NCBI GenBank assembly: GCA_964016885.1
Contig: OZ024751.1
Coordinates: 50,158,001-50,222,000 of the forward strand
Reading direction: 5' to 3'
From: Eledone cirrhosa
Lineage: Eukaryota
DNA length: 64,000 nucleotides
This document shows, piece after piece, positions 1,543-58,872 of the stretch. The position numbers and the translations under genes are program-made. The stretch's first letter is position 1. Each line of letters begins with the position of its first letter. The notes beneath the pieces were generated by a model. The model did not search any database. It saw only the letters and a list, made by a program, of their open reading frames with translations, and was not told the origin of the DNA.

Positions 1543-2478
1543 ATATTGTTATACTTGGGGAGGGTCATATTTGTGTAATATTGCCAGAATTAATAACAGA
1601 AAACACTCACTGTTTGGTTGGTTTTCGCTTTTCGCTTCTGTGTCTTTTATATCGGTAATCTAATTTATTCGGTCCTCAATGTTGCCATTGACTGACTAAC
1701 GGTCAAAAATAATACAGATACAATATAGACACAAACACATATATATAGTTTATCAAAGGTCTTTCGTTGCACATCTGCAACATCGTCAGTGGTGCTATTG
1801 TTTCCTCCCGTTACATTGTATGTCTACGCCATTTTTATTTAGTCTGTCTATATATTTATTTATTTATTTGTTTGTTTGTTTATTTTATTTTGTCTACTTT
1901 GCGCATGCGTTTGCGTGTGTGTATAGTGTTTTGTTTGATGTGTGTTCGTGATTGGGTGACTGTGTATCGGTTAATGTATTCTATCTTTACTAGTGTGTGT
2001 TTATATGTGTTTGTTGTTATTGTGCTTGTGTATGTATTTATTTATTTATTTATCTATTTATTTATTTATTTATTTATACTTCTCTTAGGTCAGTGTTGTT
2101 TGTTTGGGTGTTGTTGTTATTCCATTCATTCTTTCTGTTTAGTCTTGGCCTTCTAAGTTCTATTTCACTGGCCTCTCTGATTTGCCTATCTGCTGGGTTA
2201 TTTCTATGTTTAGATATTATTCTAATTTCTATGTTGTCTATATTACCGTCGTGTTGTTGTCTGGCATGTTCGTATAGTACTGACCCGTTTTTTCGTCCTT
2301 TTAGTTCCCCCCAGTGTTGGTCTATCCTTTCACCTATGCTACGAGCTGTCTCGCCTATGTATGTTGTTGTCATGTTTCTGCAAGTACCCTCTGTACATCT
2401 TATGCTATAGACTACGTTTCTAGTTTTACAGTTTATCCGGGGGTTTACCTTACATATGATACATTTCCTATTAGTACA
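1543..2478 (-). mobile_element. 5'-truncated Penelope-like element, family A (GIY-YIG end plus 3' UTR/pseudo-LTR), in (TA)n
   Basis: Close match to 51086-52010. Ends at the same ...tataacaata boundary, lacks the 55-nt tail, and is flanked by (TA)n. Confidence 0.93.
2074..2478 (-). pseudogene. GIY-YIG endonuclease fragment of PLE family A
   Basis: YIGETARSIGERIDQHWGEL...REASEI...LNRKNEW, nearly identical to the C-terminus of ORF 51611-54409. Confidence 0.92.
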
Positions 2479-25468: not shown

Positions 25469-25634
25469 ACATCAGCCTCCACCCACTACCAGGAATAATC
25501 AAACCCTTGAAATTCTGATTGATTCCATTTGACCAATTTTATTCCCAACATTTCAGGATCCATCTAGAAAACAAATATTCTAGTGTGATCGAACACTTGA
25601 CCAAATAATTTCAAAGCAAATTTCACTCAACTAT

Positions 25635-26295
25635 ACAGCTATGGCTGGGATGTCATCTTTTTTTAATATATATGTGTATTGTGACTGGGATGTCATCTTT
25701 TTTGTGTATATATGTGTATTATAGCTGCGATGTCAACTTTTTTGTGTGTATATATGTGTATTGTGGCTGGGATGTCATTTTTTTGTGTATATATGTGTAT
25801 TGTGGCTGGGATGTCATCTTTTGTGTGTGTATATATGTGTATTGTGGCTGGGATGTCATTTTTTTGTGTATATATGTGTATTGTGGCTGGGATGTCATCT
25901 TTTGTGTGTGTATATATGTGTATTGTGGCTGGGATGTCATTTTTTTGTGTATATATGTGTATTGTGACTGGGATGTCATTTTTTTGTGTATATATGTGTA
26001 TTGTGGCTGGGATGTCATCTTTTGTGTGTGTATATATGTGTATTGTGGCTGGGATGTCATTTTTTTGTGTATATATGTGTATTGTGACTGGGATGTCATT
26101 TTTTTGTGTATATATGTGTATTGTGGCTGGGATGTCATCTTTTGTGTGTGTATATATGTGTATTGTGGCTGGGATGTCATTTTTTTGTGTATATATGTGT
26201 ATTGTGGCTGGGATGTCATCATTTGTGTGTGTATATATGTGTATTATGGCTGCGATGTCATCTTTTTTGTGTATATATGTGTATTGTGGTTGGAA
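25635..26295. repeat. Minisatellite of 39/42-bp units with a 120-bp higher-order period
   Basis: Unit gtatatatgtgtattgtggctgggatgtca(t/c)ttttt(gt)gt; lines 25921, 26041 and 26161 begin identically. Confidence 0.95.
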
Positions 26296-26800
26296 TGTAT
26301 ATATTTTTGTACGTATATATGTCTATATGTGCATATGTGTTTGTTTATTCGAGTGTGTGCGTTTGTAAATGTGTATATAAACTTGTGTGTGTGTGTATAT
26401 GTATGTGTATGTGTGTGTGTGTGTGTCTGTGTATATATGTGTGTGTCTGTGTGTGTATGTATGTGTCTGTGTGTGTGTATGTATGTGTCTGTGAGTGTAT
26501 GTGTCTGTGTGTGTATGTTTATGCCTGTGTGTTTATATGCATGTGTCTGTATGTATGTCTATGTATGTATGTGTCTGTGTATGTATGTATGTCGAATCTC
26601 TGTAAAATACCATAAGAAATAATACCAGTACAAGAGAAACCTAAACATAGTTATCTATTCCGATCTGGATTCAATAGTTATTATATAAAAGGTGTTTCCA
26701 TGTTCACTGTTGTTAATGGAAACGGTATTACTATTATCACATATTATACACATGTAATAACTGTATTCTTATATATACATACACATACAAACATACATAC

Positions 26801-36390: not shown

Positions 36391-36464
<74 letters not shown>

Positions 36465-36465
<1 letters not shown>

Positions 36466-37122
36466 CGGCGATGAATTAGTTTTGCGAGGTTTTTTATATG
36501 AAATCGTGTGTCGAAACAAATATTGTTATACTTGGGGAGGGTCATATTTGTGTAATATTGCCAGAATTAATAACAGAACACACTCACTGTTTGGTTGGTT
36601 TTCGCTTCCCGCTTCTGTGTCTTTTATATCGGTAATCTAACTTACTCGGTCCTCAATGTTGCCATTGACTGACCGACGGTCAAAAATAATACAGATACAA
36701 TATAGACACAAACACATATATATAGTTTATCATAAATCTTTCGTTGCACATCTGCAACATCGTCAGTGGTGTTATCGTTTCCTCCTGTTGTATTATATGT
36801 CTACGCCATTTTTATTCAGTCTCTAAATAAAAATGGCGTAGACATATAATACAACAGGAGGAAACGATAACACCACTGACGATGTTGCAGATGTGCAACG
36901 AAAGATTTATGATAAACTATATATATGTGTTTGTGTCTATATTGTATCTGTATTATTTTTGACCGTCGGTCAGTCAATGGCAACATTGAGGACCGAGTAA
37001 GTTAGATTACCGATATAAAAGACACAGAAGCGAGAAGCGAAAACCAACCAAACAGTGAGTAAGTTCTGTTATTAATTCTGGCAATATTACACAAATACGA
37101 CCCTCCCCAAGTATAACAATAT
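36465..37122. mobile_element. Fold-back derivative of PLE family A (55-nt tail plus ~297-bp arms)
   Basis: 36520-36816 pairs with 36826-37122. The sequence is the 3' pseudo-LTR of 51031-57411, with the same tail gcggcgatgaattag...tcgaaaca. Confidence 0.95.
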
Positions 37123-41039: not shown

Positions 41040-41334
41040 GAGGTTGGTAATGGCACATGGAATATATAAGAGACAGAATACTTTTTTGTGAAAAAACATA
41101 ATTTTATAAGGTAAGGAAATAATAAAGGGTATAAAAAATGACCGGTTTCGATGGGTCTGCAAATTTTATACCCTTTATTATTTCCTTACCTTATAAAATT
41201 ATGTTTTTTCACAAAAAAGTATTCTGTCTCTTATATATTCCATGTGCCATTACCAACCTCAATTTTCTCTATAACCTTCGTTTTGTGTAGAAAATTACAC
41301 TTTTCATATATACTAACCTACGCAAATCCGGAAA

Positions 41335-42531
41335 ATGGCACTGGAACAAGACAACACAACTTCAAACTCAAATATAAATGAGGAAATCATGAAAATCCTA
41401 AAAGAGATAAATGGAAAACTCACCATTCTGACAAAAAAACAGGATATACCCCAAACCACCACACCGACTGACAACCAAATTTATTTAAACGTTCAAAACG
41501 TATGCAACTCCATCGAAAAACTAATGAATACCAACACAGAACAAACGACATTGCTCCATATCAAAAACCAAATGGGACACCTCTGGAAAAAACATCTAAA
41601 AACCAGAAAATTCACTTTCTGGAATATGATAAAAAACCTCAACAAAGCTGGAATTTACCAAAAATGGATTAACTCAACACCGATAGTTTTACCACGTAAA
41701 TTCCAAATAAAGCATATTACAAACGAACCTGAACCAGAAAGAAAACTCCGTGAACAAATGTCACTCAACAGGATAAACATGGAAATAGAACTCCTAAAAT
41801 TAAGGGCCACCTCAAACGAGCAAGAGTATAAGGATACTGATAAAAATATGGAGGAAGAATGCACTAAAAAGGCCGAGGGAACAACCCTACAATATTTAAT
41901 CAAATCGTGGAAACAGGACTGCGAGAATGCAGAAACTATTTCCCTTAAACGGTGGGAAAAATCCGAAAACTGGTTCCTCAAATATGAAGAAGACTTTAAA
42001 AGGACGCATCAAACAGGTAACCCCTTTATAAAGCATTTGAACATAACAAGAACTACAACAGACACATTTACACCACCAAACCCAACACACACTAACCACA
42101 GGCACATCCCCCACCAACACAAACCAAATACGGCCAACTACACCAAAAGAAACACACCCAACCACCACAACACAGGTTTCCGTAGAAATGCCCCCTACAT
42201 AAACCAACGACGAAATAACATAGATCCAACTCACAACACACACACCACATTCCTCAGAAGAAATCCACCCAGACCACTTGAAATCACAACAGAACTTACC
42301 CACAACCACACCAGACATCACCCTCAATCCAACAAAAGACAACCCCCCAACCTCAACACTCTGTACCACAGAAATAACGCACCCAAACCACATGAACCAA
42401 CAACAGAACCCTTGCTCATCAACAACCACAACACATACCACCCCCACCACCTCATGAAACAACAAGCTACAGACCCACACGCAACAGACCAACAAAATAT
42501 AATCACACACAAAACTACATTCCTTTTTTAG
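41335..42531 (+). CDS. ORF1 of PLE family B (helical N-terminal part; His/Pro/Thr/Asn-rich C-terminal part)
   Basis: Intact 398-aa ATG-initiated ORF inside the terminal repeats, upstream of the RT frame. Function unknown. Confidence 0.75.
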   Translation: MALEQDNTTSNSNINEEIMKILKEINGKLTILTKKQDIPQTTTPTDNQIYLNVQNVCNSIEKLMNTNTEQTTLLHIKNQMGHLWKKHLKTRKFTFWNMIKNLNKAGIYQKWINSTPIVLPRKFQIKHITNEPEPERKLREQMSLNRINMEIELLKLRATSNEQEYKDTDKNMEEECTKKAEGTTLQYLIKSWKQDCENAETISLKRWEKSENWFLKYEEDFKRTHQTGNPFIKHLNITRTTTDTFTPPNPTHTNHRHIPHQHKPNTANYTKRNTPNHHNTGFRRNAPYINQRRNNIDPTHNTHTTFLRRNPPRPLEITTELTHNHTRHHPQSNKRQPPNLNTLYHRNNAPKPHEPTTEPLLINNHNTYHPHHLMKQQATDPHATDQQNIITHKTTFLF

Positions 42532-44366
42532 GGAAAAGCCTGAAATACCAGGATACTCGATGCCCCCCCCCCCCCCCCCCCCCTCAGGAGAAACCAAAAA
42601 TAATCAACCTCTCAAAGACACCTCTAACCAACACACAAATCAACATTTTAAGTAAGGGCCTGAAATTTACACCTACACCACGTAAACCAAACTTCCCCGA
42701 AATGAAGGATGACATCATGGAATACTGCCGAAAGCTGCGACTAACGGAATTCTTCCACAACGACACCAACACTGAAGACGAATCACTGGTTAGAAATAAA
42801 AGCAATTTCTGCCCACAAAAGGGAAGAAATAAAGCACTGGACACGTACTGCGAACACATCACCAACTTTCCCTATGAAAAAATTACAAATAAACACACGA
42901 AATCAAACCTATCTACACACGAATGGGAAGAATTATTCACACTTAGAAACAACCCTGAGATAACTATCAAAGAAGCCGATAAAGGCAGTACTGTTGTCAT
43001 TATGAATACGGACTACTATAGGACCCTCGCACTTAACATTTTAGAAAACAACACATACTATGAAAAAACAGAAAACTACAAACACACCAAAACAATGGGG
43101 AACCTTTTGACCTTACTGAATAAATACCGCAACAGCTTAACCACAAAAGAGTTTAACTATATAAGCCACTTCAAATGCAATACAAGCTCTTTTTACGGCT
43201 TACCGAAACTCCACAAATGTAAACCCATAAACGATGCATGTGACACCTCAACCAACAATTACATTGAACTAACACCACCAGAAGACCTAAAACTCAGGCC
43301 AATTATAGCAGGCCCTACATGTGAAACCCACAGACTTAGCAACTTTCTGGACATCCTACTGAAACCCTTTCTACAACATATACAGAGCTACATACGAGAT
43401 GACCTTGACATGCTGAAACACCTCCCTAAAACAGTAAGTGCAAATACAATTCTTGTCTCCTTTGACGTAATAAACCTCTACACAAACATACCTCACAACT
43501 ATGGAATAACAGCAGTCCAATACTGGCTTAACACACACCCATCAGAAATACCGACACGCATCAACACAGATTTTATCACTGACGGACTCCGCTTTATCCT
43601 ACAAAATAACTACTTCACATTCAATGGTTCAACATACAGACAAGTATCAGGTACGGCAATGGGCACGAAAGTAGCACCCACATATGCCAACCTAGTCATG
43701 GGATTCCATGAACAACAAATATACAGTCAGTCCCTTCTCTTATTTGGAGACTCTTTCCACACACACCTCAAAGCCAATTGGAAAAGATATCTAGACGACT
43801 GCTTTATCCTATGGCAAGAAGACATGAACTCACTTACTATGTTTAAAAACATGATAAACAACATAGATAATAACATACAATTCACAATGGAATCCAATCC
43901 TAAGGAATTAGCCTTCTTGGATATTCTCATCTCTGTAATAGACGGGAAATTAGATACAGATATATTCTATAAACCCACAGATTCCAAGCAATACCTCTTT
44001 TTCACATCAAGTCACCCAAAACATACAAAACTTAACATTCCTTACAATTTGGCCAAAAGTATATGTACCATAGTATCAGATCCACCTAAATGGGAGCAAA
44101 GACTAAAGGAACTAAAAGACACCCTTATCTTAAGAGCCTTTCCACTTGAAATAATCAACAATGGAATAGACAGGGCAAAACACCTAAATCCCCATCAACT
44201 TAACAATCCAAAACAGAAAACCACACTAAACACCCTGCCATATGTATCCACTTTCAACCCCAGAAATACCGAAATGTTTGATCACCTACACAAAAACCTC
44301 CCCATCCTACTTAAAGATGTAAAAATGAAGTCTATTCTTGAAACAAGATCCTTAAAAGATCCTTAA
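42525..44366 (+). CDS. PLE reverse transcriptase (frame open upstream of the annotated ATG at 42702)
   Basis: The upstream frame reads FLGKSLKY..KIINLSKTPLT..ILSKGLKFTPTP, followed by ADKG, FYGLPKLHK, LRPII, SFDVINLYTNI, QVSGTAMG, RYLDD, FLDI and FYKPTD. Confidence 0.92.
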   Translation, partial: FLGKSLKYQDTRCPPPPPPPQEKPKIINLSKTPLTNTQINILSKGLKFTPTPRKPNFPEMKDDIMEYCRKLRLTEFFHNDTNTEDESLVRNKSNFCPQKGRNKALDTYCEHITNFPYEKITNKHTKSNLSTHEWEELFTLRNNPEITIKEADKGSTVVIMNTDYYRTLALNILENNTYYEKTENYKHTKTMGNLLTLLNKYRNSLTTKEFNYISHFKCNTSSFYGLPKLHKCKPINDACDTSTNNYIELTPPEDLKLRPIIAGPTCETHRLSNFLDILLKPFLQHIQSYIRDDLDMLKHLPKTVSANTILVSFDVINLYTNIPHNYGITAVQYWLNTHPSEIPTRINTDFITDGLRFILQNNYFTFNGSTYRQVSGTAMGTKVAPTYANLVMGFHEQQIYSQSLLLFGDSFHTHLKANWKRYLDDCFILWQEDMNSLTMFKNMINNIDNNIQFTMESNPKELAFLDILISVIDGKLDTDIFYKPTDSKQYLFFTSSHPKHTKLNIPYNLAKSICTIVSDPPKWEQRLKELKDTLILRAFPLEIINNGIDRAKHLNPHQLNNPKQKTTLNTLPYVSTFNPRNTEMFDHLHKNLPILLKDVKMKSILETRSLKDP

Positions 44367-44856
44367 AAGTAAAAGACAACCCAAATCACTTAAACGCATT
44401 CTCACTGGACCAAATATACCCAAACCAATCCTCAACCCTACAGTTACCAAATGTGGTAGAACAAACTGTGGAACGTGCCTCTACCTCACTGAAGGACAAA
44501 CATTTACATTCAAAGATGGCCAAACATTTACAGTAAAAAACAATTTCACCTGCAACTCGGAGAACTTGATTTACGCAATAACTTGCGGTGGGTGCAAACA
44601 CAACTACATAGGACAGACGGGCACCTCATTACGCAAAAGAATGACCATCCACCGCCAACAAATCCGGGACGCTAACACAAGAAAAATCCCCTTGAGCAGC
44701 CATATTGCGAACTGCACAGGAATGACACTACCCAACTTTAAAATCTTCCCCTTCTACAAGTGCTCAGATTCGTTCACACAGCAACAAAGAATAAACAAAG
44801 AAAATCTATTCCTTAACAAATTTAAACCAAAACTAAACGGGTTATCACCCCAATAG
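44356..44856 (+). pseudogene. Zn-linker plus GIY-YIG endonuclease of family B, frameshifted off the RT
   Basis: KILKSKRQPKSL..KCGRTNCGTC..TCNSENLIYAITCGGCKHNYIGQTG..R.RM..H. Removing the duplicated 10-mer gatccttaaa (~44347) restores one RT-EN frame. Confidence 0.9.
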
Positions 44857-48810: not shown

Positions 48811-50735
48811 CGGTAAATTTCTTTAAGTCGTTTGGAAGCCTCGACAATGCAAATGGGTAAATCTCCGGGTAACAAGATCCGGTGGTGGAGAGAGAGATGT
48901 AAGTGGGTGTACGTTGAGATGCGTGGCGTGTATAAGACATGTAGAGGAATGAAGGAAAGAGCATAAAGGATAAAATTAAAATAACAACACGAGAGAGAGT
49001 TACCTTGGGATAGATTTAATTGTCCCTATATATTTCGGATTCTTATCCCTCAACTGGGGTTTTTTCCGGGGTGGGGGAAAGGTTGTCTGTCGGAAAGGTG
49101 CGAAACGCGTCCTCCGCTGTTCGTTGTTTTGAATATCTGAGGTATTCAGCAGAGCGCGCGTGCGCGTGAAATGGGGTCGGTCGGGCAGAGGTCAGCGGCC
49201 GAAGTAGTTCTTTCAATTGTAGGAGTGGGGTGGCGCTAGCTGTCAGTCCATTCTCTGCCTGTTTGTTAAATGTTACTGTCTGTGTGTGTGCGTGTGTTGT
49301 TGTCTCGCTTGAGTGTGTGTGTGCGTGTGTTGGTGCCTTGTTCCTCTGTATTGGCAGTGTAGTATGTTCGTATGGTGGAATGCTACTGTGTGTGTGTGTG
49401 TGCGTGTGTGTGTTGTTGTCTCGCTTGTGTGTGTGTGCGTGTGTGTGTTGTTGTCTCGCTTGTGTGTGTGTGCGTGTGTTGCTGCAGCGTTTGTTAACTT
49501 AAACCAAGCACTTCATTTCGCTTCTCTCAAATCGATTGTTTATTTGTGGTTCTAGGCGTTTCATCCAAAGTGCTTCCTTGATACGTAACGTGCCGACGTT
49601 TCTTTCAGTCGCTAGAATTGTGACAATGGGCCTTCCGTCTTTGTTTCCGCATTTGTCTATGTGTTTCCGGAAAGACGAGGCCCTGGTTTTAGTGTGTTCC
49701 TTGATCCGGATGTGCAAAGGTCAGATTGTGCTACCTATATAGTATTGGTTGCACTTGTTACATTCTATCTTATACACGACGTATGTGCGTAGGCAACAGT
49801 TCGCATGGCGTATCGGGCAGTCTCTGAGGGAGCACGCGTCAGTTGATTTCCCGGGTTTCCTGGAGAGACATCTTCGCAGGGAGGGGCCCGAGTGGGCCAA
49901 GTAGATGTCGAGGCCCTCCCTCCGTATAGCCTTGCGGATAGCGTTGGTGGTATTCTCGCCCAGGTGTGGCATTTTAAGGAAGCACTTGCCTTGGGTACCT
50001 CTGTCTCTTGTGTCTGGTGTCTCCTACTCTGTCTGTGAGCGAGGTAGTGTACCCGTTCGTCTCCAGCACCTCGAGGAATCGCTTGGTATGAGTGACACCA
50101 CTCGCGGGATCGCTGCATCTGTTTTTGATTCGCGCGATCTCGTTCGTGATGTATCCTCTTTTGGCACTGTTAGGGAGGGCGGACTTGTAGTGAACGAACA
50201 GGTCCCTGCAGGCTGCCTTTCGGTAGAAGTTGCAGTGGATCCTTCCCTGTTCCGTGAATTTGATTCGGAAGTCGAGGAGGGCAAGTGACCCGTCTTCATT
50301 GGGGTGTTCAACACTGAAGTCAAAAAAACGATGTCATCCCAAACACTATCAGGAACATCCGCTTACCAGTAAGCCTACGTACACCAGCTTTCCAAAACAA
50401 CACTAACCGCATATATCGCACGTGTATTAAACAGATCCTGAGACATCTCAACCGCCAATTACACGTCCATAAGCGGACACTCTCAGAGCGGACACATCGA
50501 CTGTCAATAGCACCCGGCGACTTACTCCTGAAAATCACTAAAGCAATCGACCAGTGCTACCACTCCAGAGTCCAATACGAGAAAAAACGGCTCAAGCGAA
50601 AATATGAGTGGATCTTGTCGAAACGCCACAACGAGAACATCGACACTAACCCATTTACATTGTCGAGGCTTCCAAACGACTTAAAGAGATTTACCTTATT
50701 ATTCCACAATGCTTCAAGCAAACTTCAATACTCTC
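48811..50735 (-). mobile_element. Rearranged, 5'-truncated PLE, family C (Nematis-like)
   Basis: Minus strand 50320 to 49499 reads FSVEHPNEDGSLALLDF..FYRKAA..HYKSALP..CSLRDCPI..CLRTYVVYKIECNKCNQYYIGSTI*PLHIRIKEH..LRIKEAL..P.IN, with one frameshift and one stop. The pLTR end at 48812-48858 recurs inverted at 50649-50695, followed by a 40-nt tail. Clade assignment is from recalled motifs. Confidence 0.88.
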
Positions 50736-50818: not shown

Positions 50819-51610
50819 GATAATGCATTTTGGTTCCTGAGGTTTCCCGAACCACCATCCACAGAATTTTAACGGAAAAGTTGCAATATCGGAAGGAGAC
50901 CTTACTTTTGGGATTGCCTTCGTATATATAGGAAAATATTCAGGACCCCGACGGCAGAACTCAAGCCGTTTTGACGGCTATTTCTGGACTATATATATAT
51001 ATATGATATATATATATATATATATATATAGCGGCGATGAATTAGTTTTGCGAGGTTTTTTATATGAAATCGTGTGTCGAAACAGATATTGTTATATTTG
51101 GGGAGGGTCATATTTGCGTAATATTGCCAGAATTAATAACAGAACACACTCACTGTTTGGTTGGTTTTCGCTTCTCGCTGTCTTTTATATATATATATCT
51201 GCGATCTAACTTACTCGGTCCTCAATGTTGCCATTGACTGACCGGCGGTCAAAAATAATACAGATACAATATAGACAAACACTTATATATATAGTTTACA
51301 TAAATCTTTCGTTGCACATCTGCAACATCGTCAGTGGTGTTATATTCATTGTTCCTCCTGTTGTGTTGTATGTCTACGCCATTTTTTTGTTCAGTCTGTC
51401 TATATATTTATTTATTTATTTGCTTGTTTGTTTATCTTATTTTATTTTGTCTTCTTTGCGCATGCGTTTGCGTGTGTGTATAGTGTTATGTGTGATGTGT
51501 GATGTGTGACTAGTGTGTATAGTGTTGTCTGCTGGGTGACTAGTGTGTGTTTATGTGCTTGTGTATGTATTTATTTATCTTATTTTATTTAATTTAATTT
51601 ACTTATTTAT

Positions 51611-54517
51611 TTATACTTCTCTTAGGTCAGTGTTGTTTGTTTGGGTGTTGTTGTTGTTCCACTCATTCTTTCTGTTTAGCTTTGGTCTTCTAATTTCTAT
51701 TTCACTGGCCTCTCTGATTTGCCTATCTGCTGGGTCATTCCTATGTTTAGATATTATTCTAATTTCTATGTTGTCTATGTTACCGTCATGATGTTGTCTA
51801 GCATGTTCGTATAGTACTGACCCGTTTTTTCGTCCTTTTAGTTCCCCCCAGTGTTGGTCTATCCTTTCACCTATGCTACGAGCTGTCTCACCTATGTATG
51901 TTGTTGTCGTGTTTCTGCAAGTACCCTCTGTACATCTTATGCTATAGACTACGTTTCTAGTTTTACAGTTTATCCGGGGGTTCACCTTACATATGATACA
52001 TTTCCTATTGGTACAGTGGGTTTTCTTAAAAGGGTAGGTTTTGCTGATCAGGGATTTTATGGTGGTTCCTGGCTTTTCTACCACCTTTATTTTTAAGTGG
52101 GTCTTTCTCAGGGCCTTTCTACACTGGTTAGCTAATTTCCCTCCAGGGGTGGCGTCCACAAACATGACACTCTGATATCTCTGGTTGTCGTACCATGATG
52201 TGGCCTTCCCTATCTTATGTCTAGCCCTATCTAAGCTATTCCATGATTTGCTCCTGTATAGTGGGCAAATTCCTTTCATGTCCAGTTCTATGAGGGTCTT
52301 ATACTTTTCCATGGCTCCTTCGTATACTCTGACTCTGTCTCTTTGGTTGTAGCCAGAGAACTGCATGCGGTTGATGAAGTGTTGGATGTGTCCTTCCATT
52401 TCTGTTGGGTCGCACATGCTGGACACATTCTTCATCACTCGTACCAAATCTGCGATCAGAATATTAAACTTAGCACTACTGGACATTGCTGAGTTTTTGA
52501 GTATCAGGTATTTGGAGGCCATGGGTTTAGCATAGTGTGAGTGGAGAATTTGGGCTCTCTCGTCTATAGTGTTAATCCAGAGTTCTGTGTCTAATACAGG
52601 TAGTCTATTGTTAGGGTGTTTGGAAGGGAAGTCTATAGTTACAGTTATACTCTGGTGTATGGAATTAGCTATCTGCTGGATGCTTTCCATCGTGCTACGT
52701 TCTAAATCAAACTTGTTAGTGCTCTCTAGTGGGGGTGTTCTTATAACTATATTGATATCGTCTACATAACGAGAGTACATGATGAGGTCTATGGAGCCTT
52801 CATTAAGGAGATCTTTAAGTCTCCTTTCCCACCATACCATGAAAAGGTTGGCAACATCGCCAGCTATGCTGACGCCGATGGCTGCTCCCTCATTTTGGGT
52901 GTAGATTTTCTCATTGAACTTAAATATGTGGCCCTTTAGGGTAGTTTTGATACTAGCCCCTATTGCATGTGCGACCATTTTTCTTACCTGATCAGTGTTT
53001 TGGGGGGTCCGTATAGCTTTGGTCCACCCAATCCACCTTCCTATGGGAGTCTTTTTAGCCATTGAGGTTATGGTGGGGGGTCTACCTCTTATAGGTCTAC
53101 TAGGGCAGAAACATCTAAGGTCATGGCTGTCTAGGTAGTCAGTGTCGTAGGTAAGTCTAAGTAGGAGGCCCAGTTCGTCTGTGTCGACGTCGCAGAACTC
53201 CACCTCACTCTCAATGATCATCTCCACACATCTTTTCACAGCAAAATCAATGTTAATGGATGGGTACAGTGACACCACATCCATGCTGCCTATTATGCAG
53301 TTGGATAGGCTCCTGTTTTTGTTGCACTCACTGATTCTGCTGAGGAGGTCCTCTGTACTTTCACATACATCTGGGGACATCTTGATTATGGGGCGTATAA
53401 CCATTGAGAGGAAGTAGGAGATCCTGTAGTTGCTAGCTATATTAGCTCCGCATACAGGTCTTGTTGGTGGTCCTATTGTCGGGTCGTCGACTGTCTTGTG
53501 GTCTTTGCGGAGCCCATACAAGGGTGGTATGCCATTGTTAGACGCCTGGAAGTTGTTGGCAGTGCGTCTGCTTGGCTTTAGGATGTCAGTCCACATCATC
53601 ATGTGAGCGTTGAGGATTTTTTCTCTCCCATCGTGTGTTAGTTGTGCAACTTCGCTCGTGTTGGTGATGTGGGGTTGCATTGCCTCGATGTAGTTCGGCA
53701 TGCTATCTATTGACATCCTACCAGACTTATCTGTGGGTAGACACACTACCTCACCATCCCTTGTGCGCTGCTTGAGGCTAACCAAGCCTTCTACAGGTTT
53801 TATCCCAAGTTGTTGGGCCTCTGGTCTGCTCTGTCTCATAGTGTACCTGTCTACTACTTGTCTAATCTTATTTCTAGCTATGGTGAACTGTGCCTCCGTC
53901 TCGTCATCTATTTGTTGTGGTATGCAAACTCTTTTATTAAAGGGTAACCTCGTAGGATAGATATTACCCATCTTATATGTTTTGTCAGCTGGGTTGAAAA
54001 ATAGTTTCTCTAAGGGGTTGTCGTTATTTCTATCGTCATAGTTGTGTGTGTTGCTATTATTGTTATCATGGTGGTTGTTGTTGTTTCTATCCTTAGCATT
54101 AATATTATTATTGTTATGATTGCTAGATGTATTGTTGTTTACTTCACCGTTATTGTTGTTGTTACTGCTATTTCTACCATTGTGGTTGTTACTATTATTA
54201 TGTTTCTTGTTTTTGTTGATGTTGCTACATGTACTATTTCCATTATTACCACTGTGGTTATTGTTGTTGTTGTTGTTCGTATTGTTACCGTTATTACTAC
54301 TGTGGTCACTGTTGCTGTGTCTGTGGTTAACGTTTCTATTATTATTATTATTGTGGTTGTTGTTGTTCTGTCTATCGCTAGTATTATTACCATTATCACT
54401 ATTTCTCACTTTCCTGCCATTGTTATGGTTATGGCTGTTATTTCTATACCCAGAGTTATTGTTTATATTACTACTACCGTTATTATTGTTGTTGTTGTTT
54501 ACCTTTGCATTCCAACG
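51611..54517 (-). CDS. PLE RT-GIY-YIG polyprotein, 5'-truncated at the inversion junction
   Basis: The frame stays open beyond the track's GTG start (54409) up to the junction (RWNAKVNNN..). Motifs TDKS, LYGLRKDHK, TRPV, SMDVVSLYPSI, QNEGAAIG, RYVDD, PVLD, HYAKP, CxxxxCxxC and VVYSIRC..YIGET.R..ER..QH. No internal stops. Confidence 0.93.
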   Translation of the reverse strand, partial: RWNAKVNNNNNNNGSSNINNNSGYRNNSHNHNNGRKVRNSDNGNNTSDRQNNNNHNNNNNRNVNHRHSNSDHSSNNGNNTNNNNNNNHSGNNGNSTCSNINKNKKHNNSNNHNGRNSSNNNNNGEVNNNTSSNHNNNNINAKDRNNNNHHDNNNSNTHNYDDRNNDNPLEKLFFNPADKTYKMGNIYPTRLPFNKRVCIPQQIDDETEAQFTIARNKIRQVVDRYTMRQSRPEAQQLGIKPVEGLVSLKQRTRDGEVVCLPTDKSGRMSIDSMPNYIEAMQPHITNTSEVAQLTHDGREKILNAHMMMWTDILKPSRRTANNFQASNNGIPPLYGLRKDHKTVDDPTIGPPTRPVCGANIASNYRISYFLSMVIRPIIKMSPDVCESTEDLLSRISECNKNRSLSNCIIGSMDVVSLYPSINIDFAVKRCVEMIIESEVEFCDVDTDELGLLLRLTYDTDYLDSHDLRCFCPSRPIRGRPPTITSMAKKTPIGRWIGWTKAIRTPQNTDQVRKMVAHAIGASIKTTLKGHIFKFNEKIYTQNEGAAIGVSIAGDVANLFMVWWERRLKDLLNEGSIDLIMYSRYVDDINIVIRTPPLESTNKFDLERSTMESIQQIANSIHQSITVTIDFPSKHPNNRLPVLDTELWINTIDERAQILHSHYAKPMASKYLILKNSAMSSSAKFNILIADLVRVMKNVSSMCDPTEMEGHIQHFINRMQFSGYNQRDRVRVYEGAMEKYKTLIELDMKGICPLYRSKSWNSLDRARHKIGKATSWYDNQRYQSVMFVDATPGGKLANQCRKALRKTHLKIKVVEKPGTTIKSLISKTYPFKKTHCTNRKCIICKVNPRINCKTRNVVYSIRCTEGTCRNTTTTYIGETARSIGERIDQHWGELKGRKNGSVLYEHARQHHDGNIDNIEIRIISKHRNDPADRQIREASEIEIRRPKLNRKNEWNNNNTQTNNTDLREV

Positions 54518-54519
54518 TA

Positions 54520-56886
54520 TATAAGATGGGTAATATCTATCCTACGAGGTTACCCTTTAATAAAAGAGTTTGCATACCACAACAAATAGATGACGAGACG
54601 GAGGCACAGTTCACCATAGCTAGAAATAAGATTAGACAAGTAGTAGACAGGTACACTATGAGACAGAGCAGACCAGAGGCCCAACAACTTGGGATAAAAC
54701 CTGTAGAAGGCTTGGTTAGCCTCAAGCAGCGCACAAGGGATGGTGAGGTAGTGTGTCTACCCACAGATAAGTCTGGTAGGATGTCAATAGATAGCATGCC
54801 GAACTACATCGAGGCAATGCAACCCCACATCACCAACACGAGCGAAGTTGCACAACTAACACACGATGGGAGAGAAAAAATCCTCAACGCTCACATGATG
54901 ATGTGGACTGACATCCTAAAGCCAAGCAGACGCACTGCCAACAACTTCCAGGCGTCTAACAATGGCATACCACCCTTGTATGGGCTCCGCAAAGACCACA
55001 AGACAGTCGACGACCCGACAATAGGACCACCAACAAGACCTGTATGCGGAGCTAATATAGCTAGCAACTACAGGATCTCCTACTTCCTCTCAATGGTTAT
55101 ACGCCCCATAATCAAGATGTCCCCAGATGTATGTGAAAGTACAGAGGACCTCCTCAGCAGAATCAGTGAGTGCAACAAAAACAGGAGCCTATCCAACTGC
55201 ATAATAGGCAGCATGGATGTGGTGTCACTGTACCCATCCATTAACATTGATTTTGCTGTGAAAAGATGTGTGGAGATGATCATTGAGAGTGAGGTGGAGT
55301 TCTGCGACGTCGACACAGACGAACTGGGCCTCCTACTTAGACTTACCTACGACACTGACTACCTAGACAGCCATGACCTTAGATGTTTCTGCCCTAGTAG
55401 ACCTATAAGAGGTAGACCCCCCACCATAACCTCAATGGCTAAAAAGACTCCCATAGGAAGGTGGATTGGGTGGACCAAAGCTATACGGACCCCCCAAAAC
55501 ACTGATCAGGTAAGAAAAATGGTCGCACATGCAATAGGGGCTAGTATCAAAACTACCCTAAAGGGCCACATATTTAAGTTCAATGAGAAAATCTACACCC
55601 AAAATGAGGGAGCAGCCATCGGCGTCAGCATAGCTGGCGATGTTGCCAACCTTTTCATGGTATGGTGGGAAAGGAGACTTAAAGATCTCCTTAATGAAGG
55701 CTCCATAGACCTCATCATGTACTCTCGTTATGTAGACGATATCAATATAGTTATAAGAACACCCCCACTAGAGAGCACTAACAAGTTTGATTTAGAACGT
55801 AGCACGATGGAAAGCATCCAGCAGATAGCTAATTCCATACACCAGAGTATAACTGTAACTATAGACTTCCCTTCCAAACACCCTAACAATAGACTACCTG
55901 TATTAGACACAGAACTCTGGATTAACACTATAGACGAGAGAGCCCAAATTCTCCACTCACACTATGCTAAACCCATGGCCTCCAAATACCTGATACTCAA
56001 AAACTCAGCAATGTCCAGTAGTGCTAAGTTTAATATTCTGATCGCAGATTTGGTACGAGTGATGAAGAATGTGTCCAGCATGTGCGACCCAACAGAAATG
56101 GAAGGACACATCCAACACTTCATCAACCGCATGCAGTTCTCTGGCTACAACCAAAGAGACAGAGTCAGAGTATACGAAGGAGCCATGGAAAAGTATAAGA
56201 CCCTCATAGAACTGGACATGAAAGGAATTTGCCCACTATACAGGAGCAAATCATGGAATAGCTTAGATAGGGCTAGACATAAGATAGGGAAGGCCACATC
56301 ATGGTACGACAACCAGAGATATCAGAGTGTCATGTTTGTGGACGCCACCCCTGGAGGGAAATTAGCTAACCAGTGTAGAAAGGCCCTGAGAAAGACCCAC
56401 TTAAAAATAAAGGTGGTAGAAAAGCCAGGAACCACCATAAAATCCCTGATCAGCAAAACCTACCCTTTTAAGAAAACCCACTGTACCAATAGGAAATGTA
56501 TCATATGTAAGGTGAACCCCCGGATAAACTGTAAAACTAGAAACGTAGTCTATAGCATAAGATGTACAGAGGGTACTTGCAGAAACACGACAACAACATA
56601 CATAGGTGAGACAGCTCGTAGCATAGGTGAAAGGATAGACCAACACTGGGGGGAACTAAAAGGACGAAAAAACGGGTCAGTACTATACGAACATGCTAGA
56701 CAACATCATGACGGTAACATAGACAACATAGAAATTAGAATAATATCTAAACATAGGAATGACCCAGCAGATAGGCAAATCAGAGAGGCCAGTGAAATAG
56801 AAATTAGAAGACCAAAGCTAAACAGAAAGAATGAGTGGAACAACAACAACACCCAAACAAACAACACTGACCTAAGAGAAGTATAA
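54520..56886 (+). CDS. Second, more truncated copy of the same RT-GIY-YIG ORF
   Basis: Translation is identical to the minus copy from YKMGNIYP onward. The first five residues in the track (TTG start at 54505) come from spacer sequence. Confidence 0.9.
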   Translation, partial: YKMGNIYPTRLPFNKRVCIPQQIDDETEAQFTIARNKIRQVVDRYTMRQSRPEAQQLGIKPVEGLVSLKQRTRDGEVVCLPTDKSGRMSIDSMPNYIEAMQPHITNTSEVAQLTHDGREKILNAHMMMWTDILKPSRRTANNFQASNNGIPPLYGLRKDHKTVDDPTIGPPTRPVCGANIASNYRISYFLSMVIRPIIKMSPDVCESTEDLLSRISECNKNRSLSNCIIGSMDVVSLYPSINIDFAVKRCVEMIIESEVEFCDVDTDELGLLLRLTYDTDYLDSHDLRCFCPSRPIRGRPPTITSMAKKTPIGRWIGWTKAIRTPQNTDQVRKMVAHAIGASIKTTLKGHIFKFNEKIYTQNEGAAIGVSIAGDVANLFMVWWERRLKDLLNEGSIDLIMYSRYVDDINIVIRTPPLESTNKFDLERSTMESIQQIANSIHQSITVTIDFPSKHPNNRLPVLDTELWINTIDERAQILHSHYAKPMASKYLILKNSAMSSSAKFNILIADLVRVMKNVSSMCDPTEMEGHIQHFINRMQFSGYNQRDRVRVYEGAMEKYKTLIELDMKGICPLYRSKSWNSLDRARHKIGKATSWYDNQRYQSVMFVDATPGGKLANQCRKALRKTHLKIKVVEKPGTTIKSLISKTYPFKKTHCTNRKCIICKVNPRINCKTRNVVYSIRCTEGTCRNTTTTYIGETARSIGERIDQHWGELKGRKNGSVLYEHARQHHDGNIDNIEIRIISKHRNDPADRQIREASEIEIRRPKLNRKNEWNNNNTQTNNTDLREV

Positions 56887-57162
56887 ATAAATAAGTAAAT
56901 TAAATTAAATAAAATAAGATAAATAAATACATACACAAGCACATAAACACACACTAGTCACCCAGCAGACAACACTATACACACTAGTCACACATCACAC
57001 ATCACACATAACACTATACACACACGCAAACGCATGCGCAAAGAAGACAAAATAAAATAAGATAAACAAACAAGCAAATAAATAAATAAATATATAGACA
57101 GACTGAACAAAAAAATGGCGTAGACATACAACACAACAGGAGGAACAATGAATATAACACCA

Positions 57163-57190
57163 CTGACGATGTTGCAGATGTGCAACGAAA
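57163..57190 (+). ncRNA. Hammerhead-like core in the family A pseudo-LTR (also in the 1543, 36465 and 51086 arms)
   Basis: CTGACGA t GTTGCA gatg TGCAAC GAAA is invariant in all copies. I could not identify a convincing stem I. Confidence 0.5.
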
Positions 57191-57403
57191 GATTTATGTA
57201 AACTATATATATAAGTGTTTGTCTATATTGTATCTGTATTATTTTTGACCGCCGGTCAGTCAATGGCAACATTGAGGACCGAGTAAGTTAGATCGCAGAT
57301 ATATATATATAAAAGACAGCGAGAAGCGAAAACCAACCAAACAGTGAGTGTGTTCTGTTATTAATTCTGGCAATATTACGCAAATATGACCCTCCCCAAA
57401 TAT

Positions 57404-57452
<49 letters not shown>

Positions 57453-57502: not shown

Positions 57503-57928
57503 CATGTGTATATAATATATATATATATATATATATAAGGGCATACTGCGTTTCGGGTGATCTACTGGTTTTTAGCACTACATTTAGCCAATGTCCGGAA
57601 TGAGGCCAGCCTAGTGAGAGAGATGATCTTTATTTATTTAATTGATTCAGTGACGGTATGATGTGAAAGTCTTTTGTCATTCAGTGTGTCTGATAAACTG
57701 AACGACCAGCTCATGAATTATTAGTCTGTAATTAGTTAAGAATTCCACAGACACGTGCACCTTTAAAGGAATTGCCATGCAAAAATCAATGTATTGTACG
57801 TGTGCGTGTGTTGGTGCCTTGTTCCTCTGTATTGGCAGTGTAGTATGTTCGTATGGTGGAATGCTACTGTGTGTGTGTGCGTGTGTTGTTGTCTCGCTTG
57901 TGTGTGTGTGCGTGTGTTGCTGCAGCAA

Positions 57929-58004
57929 TGGATTGTACGTGTAATTCAAAGGTCCCTTCTTGTCACATGACAAGAAGGGACCTTTGAATTACACGTACAA
58001 TCCA
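57929..58004. repeat. Perfect ~37-bp-arm palindrome next to a family C 3' UTR fragment (57797-57926)
   Basis: tggattgtacgtgtaattcaaaggtcccttcttgtca ca tgacaagaagggacctttgaattacacgtacaatcca. Confidence 0.92.
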
Positions 58005-58872
58005 TCAAACAGACTTCCACACTGTTTCTGTTTACCAGATTTCATTCACAATTCACATGCTTGAGTCAACTCATGTATATAGTAAAGAAAGTCGTGAAGA
58101 TATATTCAAATTGACTTTGACTGCATAACCCTGACTGGTGGTGCTGGTGGTGTTGCTGGTGTGGTGGTGTTTGTAATGGTGGTATTGGTGGTGTTGCTTG
58201 TGTTAATGTTGCTGATGAGGTGGGGTGGGGTGATGTTGGTGGGGGAGATCCAGATTGCCACGTAGAGAGATCAAACTCAGAACCTCATGATTGTAAAGTG
58301 AACTTAGTAATCATTCACCCACGTCAACGCTAACGCCAACAATATTTCATTAGTTTCAATGTGGCGAGGTGGACAGGTGGAAATTATGAAATAGCTGTCA
58401 TCTTGAATGTTCCTTTACCAATATTTTCTTTTCACATGATCTTTATTTTGACAAATGGATGGAAAAAACACTTTATTGTATTTATTTGTCATTGTCATTT
58501 TTCGTCTTGTGCTTTTTTTTTTTTTTTTTCAAGAATCTACTTCAAGACAAAAATATCAATGTATTTGCATTTTGCGCTAGTTTCAAAATATTTTTATTTA
58601 CTTTGGCTCACAATGATCAGACGTTTGCGCATTGGATTGCCTAAAATCCCGTTGCTAAGACGACCTTCCCGAAAGTAAATATCTGAATCGATATAGTATG
58701 TGTGTTATCAGAAAGATTATAGCTAAAAGCAACTAGAAAACTATACGGACGGAGTCTGGTGTGTACGTTTTTAATATAGAACTTACAGCGCAAATAGATT
58801 ATTGACCAACAATACAAACACATGAAGACGTATATGCACATGCAATGACATATATATATATATATATATATA

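Follow-up and report, generated by a model that had tools for sequence, protein, structure and literature searches.

A likely Nematis-related lineage of Penelope-like elements with a C-terminal endonuclease and a conserved insert at the IFD position of telomerase, from a locus of Eledone cirrhosa

Can a Penelope-like element (PLE) whose GIY-YIG endonuclease (EN) lies at the C-terminus carry a domain at the site where telomerase has its insertion in fingers domain (IFD), and is such a domain related to that of telomerase? The question is raised by a locus of Eledone cirrhosa (contig OZ024751.1), where the window, the whole stretch of 64,000 nucleotides that was analysed, contains a PLE termed here family A. 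PLEs and telomerase reverse transcriptases (TERTs) are sister groups. The telomerase IFD is described as two bracing helices linked by the TRAP, which is largely beta sheet and touches template and primer (PMC10055720). Canonical PLEs are reported to lack an IFD, Naiad elements to have one of ~20 aa and Chlamys elements one of 20-40 aa, and IFD-like regions occur sporadically in Coprina (PMC8557442).

Family A is present as two inverted arms, 51086-53978 and 54519-57411, of 2893 nt each, which are 100% complementary and separated by 540 nt. The surrounding DNA is rich in microsatellites. The copies of family A and their parts are the following:

51086..53978, minus strand: left arm, an inverted copy of 54519-57411, 2893 nt, 100% identical
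51030..51085, minus strand: 3' tail of ~55 nt found in the left arm only, after which (TA)n follows
53979..54518, minus strand: 5' extension that only the left arm has, comprising the conserved RW motif followed in frame by ~180 aa rich in Asn
54526..56886, plus strand: open reading frame (ORF) of the right arm (P0001), encoding RT, thumb, linker and GIY-YIG; 786 aa, stop-free, 5'-truncated
57110..57411, plus strand: pLTR, terminating in (TA)n
57163..57197, plus strand: minimal type-I hammerhead-like motif, with core, 6-bp helix II and short helix III
36460-37122: head-to-head pair of solo family A pLTRs that share ~90% identity with the main copy, carry the tail on the left arm and are flanked by (TA)n on either side
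1543-2478, minus strand: 5'-truncated family A copy in (TA)n, with EN and 3' end kept

The left arm encodes the protein of the right arm plus a 5' part beginning at the RW motif. Full-length relatives of family A measure ~1000-1200 aa and reach upstream of RW, and both arms are therefore 5'-truncated. The Asn-rich stretch of ~180 aa sits in an N-terminal loop that is mostly 17-70 aa long in relatives. A shorter N/S/G-rich stretch occupies this site in the Octopus vulgaris relative, and N-rich inserts resembling it are found in Penelopes of Adineta vaga (PMC3846280).

Contigs of runs X1 and X3 likewise include the 5' part at 53979-54518, and the element depth in the X3 contigs climbs towards the 3' end, which is the expectation for a high-copy, 5'-truncated family. 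No listed contig piece crosses the arm junction at 54518/54519. An assembly artefact as the source of the inverted pair is rated unlikely, because the asymmetric tail and the (TA)n ends recur at 36460-37122. The two arms at this locus form a young inverted pair that is 5'-truncated and bordered by (TA)n at both ends. Its inverted arms, tail, (TA)n flanks and hammerhead-like motif fit the anatomy of PLEs, for which inverted pLTRs with a tail (PMC3846280) and minimal ribozymes (PMC4209133) are on record. The hammerhead-like motif, one per pLTR, was recognised by pattern, and the loose pattern alone is not specific (50 matches vs 19.5 expected). The Rfam search gave no hammerhead match. When three copies were folded as monomers, helix II appeared in two of them, with weak z-scores. 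In the copy at 1543-2478, helix III appears by eye to have G-C where the other copies have G-U.

Element DNA from positions 54000-56900 of the window was also met in runs X1-X6: for three organism labels it was near-identical (64-84% of words), and for seven more it reached 20-45% of words. This sharing across labels may reflect either close relatives or horizontal spread. Two further PLEs lie in the window:

41317-44856, plus strand: family B, a Neptune-type PLE with a frameshift near 44356-44366 and a separate 404-aa frame upstream (41317-42531)
49499-50333, minus strand: frameshifted fragment of a third PLE family, covering thumb, linker and EN; the linker is short and Nematis-like

A hairpin of ~80 nt is located at 57926-58007, just downstream of family A, and the stretch adjoining it is also present at 49314-49488. 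According to the ORF list, a minisatellite-like array spans 25609-26368, its repeat unit measuring some 38-40 nt.

The feature that sets family A apart lies in its RT, between motifs A and B':

55216..55602, plus strand: span from the Asp of motif A to the Gln of motif B', 128 codons
55288..55500, plus strand: insert of ~70 aa, residues 255-325, with predicted helices 264-274, 277-282, 301-305 and 309-312 plus coil
55387..55431, plus strand: basic loop of the insert, residues 288-302, with P290, R292, G296 and P299 conserved
52997..53209, minus strand: second, identical copy of the insert, in the left arm

The original prediction gave the distance between the two motifs as 128 codons in family A and 59 in family B, and the same values were measured here, from Asp231 (55216) to Gln359 (55600-55602) in P0001 and in the family B protein P0002 (42396-44363). 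The insert segment that it quoted is likewise in the translation, which contains TDKS, GLRKDHK, GAAIG and HYAKPMA, followed by a C-terminal GIY-YIG. For a wider view, 267 family A proteins (P0001, 120 listed relatives and 146 further ones) were aligned to the family profile, on which the count of spans rests in preference to a regex biased to 110-165. All rows that span both motifs (200/200) have an A-B' distance of 117-153 residues, in a sample that disfavours insert-less close relatives because the queries themselves carry the insert. The corresponding distance is 57-61 in family B relatives (112 measurable of 120), ~78-84 in Naiad-type and ~54-57 in Hydra-type loci, both assigned by motif, and ~115 in human TERT, as counted by eye in Fig S1 of PMC8557442.

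Residues P290, R292, G296, P299 and W316 of the insert are conserved at 82-92% (R292 in 90%), and the best-conserved stretch takes in a hydrophobic helix, E266-L273, and W316. Only one Cys is partly conserved (63%). The mean information of the insert is 1.65 bits, vs 1.88-2.39 in the flanking core blocks, and identity to the O. vulgaris relative is 72% over the insert region and 68% overall. The insert is conserved, not due to chance and diagnostic of a clade. Unrelated inserts are known at the same site in A. vaga Pen3/Pen5a and in Coprina, and the IFD has been lost in some Naiads, so that a tolerated loop expansion without function might be envisaged for family A as well. This is scarcely credible, given a near-fixed length, a confident predicted fold and residues that stay near-invariant while RT identity among the insert-bearing rows goes down to ~20%.

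The insert is predicted to be ordered. Its pLDDT is 85-97 in the AlphaFold2 model of the whole protein, and an excised piece of 114 residues reached a mean of 92.5. The insert model consists of short helices and coil and lacks any strand longer than two residues; predicted helices 241-254 and 326-346 bracket it, in agreement with the definition of the TERT-type IFD as lying between motifs A and B' with two flanking helices. The placement of the insert at the IFD position, claimed in the original prediction, is thus borne out: it lies between the helices that flank the TRAP, its span is kept in every one of the 200 spanning rows, and neither disorder nor lack of conservation was found. The insert is at the TRAP position of the telomerase IFD with a different predicted fold, as the model is helix and coil and the TRAP is largely beta sheet.

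The likeness to the IFDs of TERT and Naiad that had also been proposed found no support beyond position. The best fold matches of the whole model are TERTs (Z 14-15), which is expected from the known sister relation of PLEs and TERTs. With the insert-only model, the 50 best structural matches included no TERT, 0/48,161 chains reached Z>=5 (best 4.7) and Foldseek returned nothing at E<=0.001, absences that leave a difference or novelty of fold undemonstrated. A profile comparison by hhalign against nine Naiad-type inserts gave a probability of 0.5%. Homology of the insert to the telomerase IFD is unlikely. In its full form, such homology would mean a domain shared with TERT and Naiad/Chlamys and kept from the PLE-TERT ancestor; this would suit the common site between flanking helices, the similar length (128 vs ~115 in human TERT, by eye), the TERTs at the head of the whole-model matches and a grouping of family A with Naiad that topology tests do not reject. 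We consider it very improbable in view of the predicted fold and the hhalign result, and because Naiad cores score far under canonical PLE cores. Pfam had nothing on the insert and gave only weak RVT_1 and GIY-YIG matches for the protein, and the only matches among PDB sequences were distant bacterial RTs. The RVT_1 score of P0001 is 21.8 bits vs a Pfam cut-off of 29.6, and 10/49 full family A proteins match RVT_1 at E<=0.01. Such low scores may be the reason that the lineage has been overlooked.

What the insert does can be approached through its charge. The loop formed by residues 288-302 has a positive net charge in 200/200 rows (mean +4.1), and acidic residues prevail in the first half of the insert (mean -3.7). 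Following established PLE biology, the GIY-YIG domain would nick (TA)n DNA, the RT would prime cDNA at the nick on an RNA ended by pLTR and hammerhead, and a second priming or a template switch would write the inverted arm. Between the two TRAP-flanking helices, the insert would present its conserved basic loop to the primer-template as a clamp or an RNA-binding patch, a role suggested by the TRAP-equivalent position together with the basic loop. By analogy with telomerase, the chances that the insert clamps or binds RNA to steady the primer-template duplex may be put at about even. As the main rival reading, the insert might instead be a module that has a structural part to play or docks the N-terminal domain, the linker/EN or a host factor. 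The presence of helix E266-L273 and W316 in the best-conserved stretch, the acidic first half and the double use of the TERT TRAP as a protein hub (PMC10055720) all point in this direction. A loop that is basic in every row, the retention of R292 in 90% and a site that in TERT lies next to the duplex weigh against such a module, which we regard as somewhat unlikely.

The other domains of the family A protein combine unusual and familiar traits:

54766..55002, plus strand: DKS and KDHK motifs, replacing DKG and PK(I/L)HK of canonical elements
56482..56532, plus strand: short Nematis-type Cys linker (C653, C658, C661, C669), identified by eye against Figs S2 and S7 of PMC8557442
56539..56832, plus strand: C-terminal GIY-YIG EN, with CCHH and catalytic R, E and N assigned by residue conservation

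DKS is present in 124/137 rows of family A and K-D-H in 150/159. A divergent subgroup (P0376, P0389, P0390, P0407, P0413, P0419, P0430, P0451 and P0458) has the insert, with a span of 128-159 aa, together with mostly canonical DKG and PKxHK motifs. Because of this pairing, the insert is a better marker of the clade than the odd motifs are. KDHK is common to the main family A subgroup and the Hydra clade, possibly by convergence. In the linker, the spacer between C661 and C669 is 7 in 122/190 rows. The EN model matches the fold of I-TevI (1ln0; Z 10.5, rmsd 2.1 over 88 residues), and its near-invariant C680, C685, H723 and H728 were assigned to the CCHH by eye from Fig S2 of PMC8557442. A C-terminal EN was found in 151/200 family A rows, and most of the others end too early to reach it; only four of the 49 rows without EN continue for >330 aa beyond motif C, and the Cys linker is seen in three of them. 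An upstream YIG match in 2/63 long proteins, which might have indicated an N-terminal EN, was set aside since the records are multi-stretch.

To which PLEs does family A belong? Reference groups of Hydra, Naiad, Neptune, Poseidon and Nematis type were labelled by motif, by eye against Figs S1, S2 and S7 of PMC8557442. The tree comprised 51 rows and 385 columns after removal of the insert columns (of 71 rows chosen, 3 fell below the motif cut and 17 more were left out). The insert-bearing rows form a single clade (25/25, support 100/100) on a long stem of 1.57, separate from the Neptune-type (9 rows, 93/96), Poseidon-, Hydra- and Naiad-type groups. In this tree, which contains a single Nematis-type RT and no Athena, Coprina, Chlamys or TERT, the clade is sister to the Nematis-type row L188 (89/91). 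AU tests on a 25-row subset rejected neither family A with Naiad (p 0.199) nor family A with Hydra (p 0.261). The RT phylogeny called for by the original prediction, run here with look-alikes assigned by motif, yields a separate clade that nests in none of the groups sampled, with a weak deep placement in view of the two unrejected joins.

Profile scores point the same way. With the core profile, the Nematis-type row came first (107.5 bits), followed by the best Neptune (100.9), Naiad (<=28) and Hydra (<=8). With the thumb profile, two Nematis-type pieces scored 31 and 28 vs <=15 for others, and with the EN profile a Poseidon-type piece (50.5 bits) and the Nematis-type row (49.9) tied. On these sequence comparisons, the closest kin of family A appear to be Nematis. 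The nearest named protein is from O. vulgaris (68% identity), and the named hosts of insert-bearing relatives are three: an octopus (O. vulgaris), a sea cucumber (Holothuria leucospilota) and a jellyfish (Sanderia malayensis). No additional Nematis-type or family A locus was found in 225 further genome searches; viral-contig scans found nothing, and the family C fragment, used as query, retrieved no homolog. The ESM Atlas gave mostly unnamed clusters and one, mostly nematode, that scored 0.97. Several prokaryote assemblies (loci L122-L231) hold many animal-type PLEs of Naiad, Neptune and Poseidon type, probably as host contamination.

Family A shares with canonical PLEs bearing a C-terminal EN the single ORF with TERT-like RT, the C-terminal GIY-YIG with CCHH and the inverted pLTR with a hammerhead-like motif (pattern-based), and departs from their lack of an IFD (128 vs 57-61). 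It has the short Cys linker of Nematis, by eye, without the short A-B' span, and neither the long Cys-rich linker nor the RT grouping of Neptune, a group that is paraphyletic in the published phylogeny. Naiad/Chlamys membership fails on the N-terminal GIY-YIG, as the EN of family A is C-terminal (151/200 rows), and EN-minus Coprina/Athena membership on the presence of an EN. Hydra membership, raised by KDHK, was rejected on CCHH, motif B, the absence of an IFD in that clade and profile scores.

The lineage might still be a subclade of Nematis, or of a paraphyletic Neptune, already held in Repbase/Dfam as generic Penelope, with only the insert unremarked. The Nematis-type linker, the sister position in the tree, the top profile scores and the mostly nematode ESM Atlas cluster (0.97) would agree with this; moreover, family A appears high-copy in one run set, and repeat libraries therefore probably contain members. 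Conversely, the rows C_remanei and Pristionc of Fig S1 and three Nematis rows of Fig S7 in PMC8557442 are free of the insert and read LYTN and LAMG, vs LYPS and G(G/A)(A/P)IG in family A. GGAIG, GGPIG and RKDHK have 0 matches in the supplement of that paper, as far as the text on eight of its nine PDF pages shows, and the stem is long (1.57). A known Nematis subclade is for these reasons unlikely. Among the selected canonical sequences of Fig S1 in PMC8557442, no row with a C-terminal EN shows such an insert, and the available parts of PMC7943196, PMC6515669 and PMC13159263 contain nothing on this lineage. Searches of the openly accessible literature found no description of family A.

It is likely that family A is a Nematis-related PLE lineage with a C-terminal EN and its own insert at the IFD position. 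The suggestion of a poorly described clade joining an IFD-like domain to a C-terminal EN holds in that family A falls outside the Neptune-, Poseidon-, Hydra- and Naiad-type sets and has its EN at the C-terminus; the IFD likeness is supported with respect to position. The whole reading, to which we give a fair degree of confidence, is a young, 5'-truncated insertion of a PLE from a deep C-terminal-EN lineage, likely sister to Nematis, whose insert at the TRAP position is predicted to be a small helical subdomain, likely arose separately from the IFDs of telomerase and of Naiad, and likely touches template and primer. The current scheme has eight PLE clades (bioRxiv 10.64898/2026.07.22.740005). 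More tentatively, family A could represent an unnamed ninth major clade, widespread in marine invertebrates, whose independently evolved subdomain of ~70 aa, without a PDB match, serves at the TRAP site as a primer-template clamp and would be a convergent IFD within the group that is sister to the telomerases; we lean somewhat against this stronger version. The lineage breaks the rule that elements with a C-terminal EN lack an IFD, with an insert of about TERT length and a fold predicted to be different. It supports repeated, independent gain at the IFD site, a possibility left open by Craig et al. (PMC8557442), and offers intact natural ORFs for the study of an IFD-position domain outside telomerase.

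Among known systems, Nematis (PMC8557442) has the same C-terminal GIY-YIG with CCHH, a short Cys linker and similar pre-linker and thumb motifs; family A differs in its A-B' span (117-153 vs ~60), LYPS, G(G/A)(A/P)IG, mostly DKS/KDHK, a long separate stem and ORFs of ~1000-1200 aa. With the Hydra clade it shares KDHK at motif 1, YPS at motif A, DK(S/T), the RW motif, (TA)n targets, hammerheads and aquatic invertebrate hosts, but that clade lacks IFD and CCHH and has a divergent motif B, whereas family A has the insert, CCHH and a conventional motif B' (PMC8557442). Pen3_Av and Pen5a_Av of A. vaga resemble family A in the C-terminal EN, an insert between RT motifs 3 and 4, in-frame Asn-rich insertions and the inverted pLTR with tail; they belong to the Penelope/Poseidon group, and their insert is short, Cys-rich and confined to two rotifer families (PMC3846280). 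In Naiad/Chlamys elements, too, extra sequence separates RT3(A) from RT4(B), and the targets are microsatellites. Their EN is N-terminal, their IFD ~20 or 20-40 aa and canonical hammerheads are mostly absent (PMC8557442), in contrast to the C-terminal EN, the insert of ~70 aa predicted to be helical and the hammerhead-like motif of family A. The IFD of TERT (IFDa-TRAP-IFDc; PMC10055720) is matched in position between two flanking helices, in similar length and in basic residues; its TRAP is largely beta sheet and partners with the TEN domain and TPP1, whereas the family A insert is predicted to be helix and coil.
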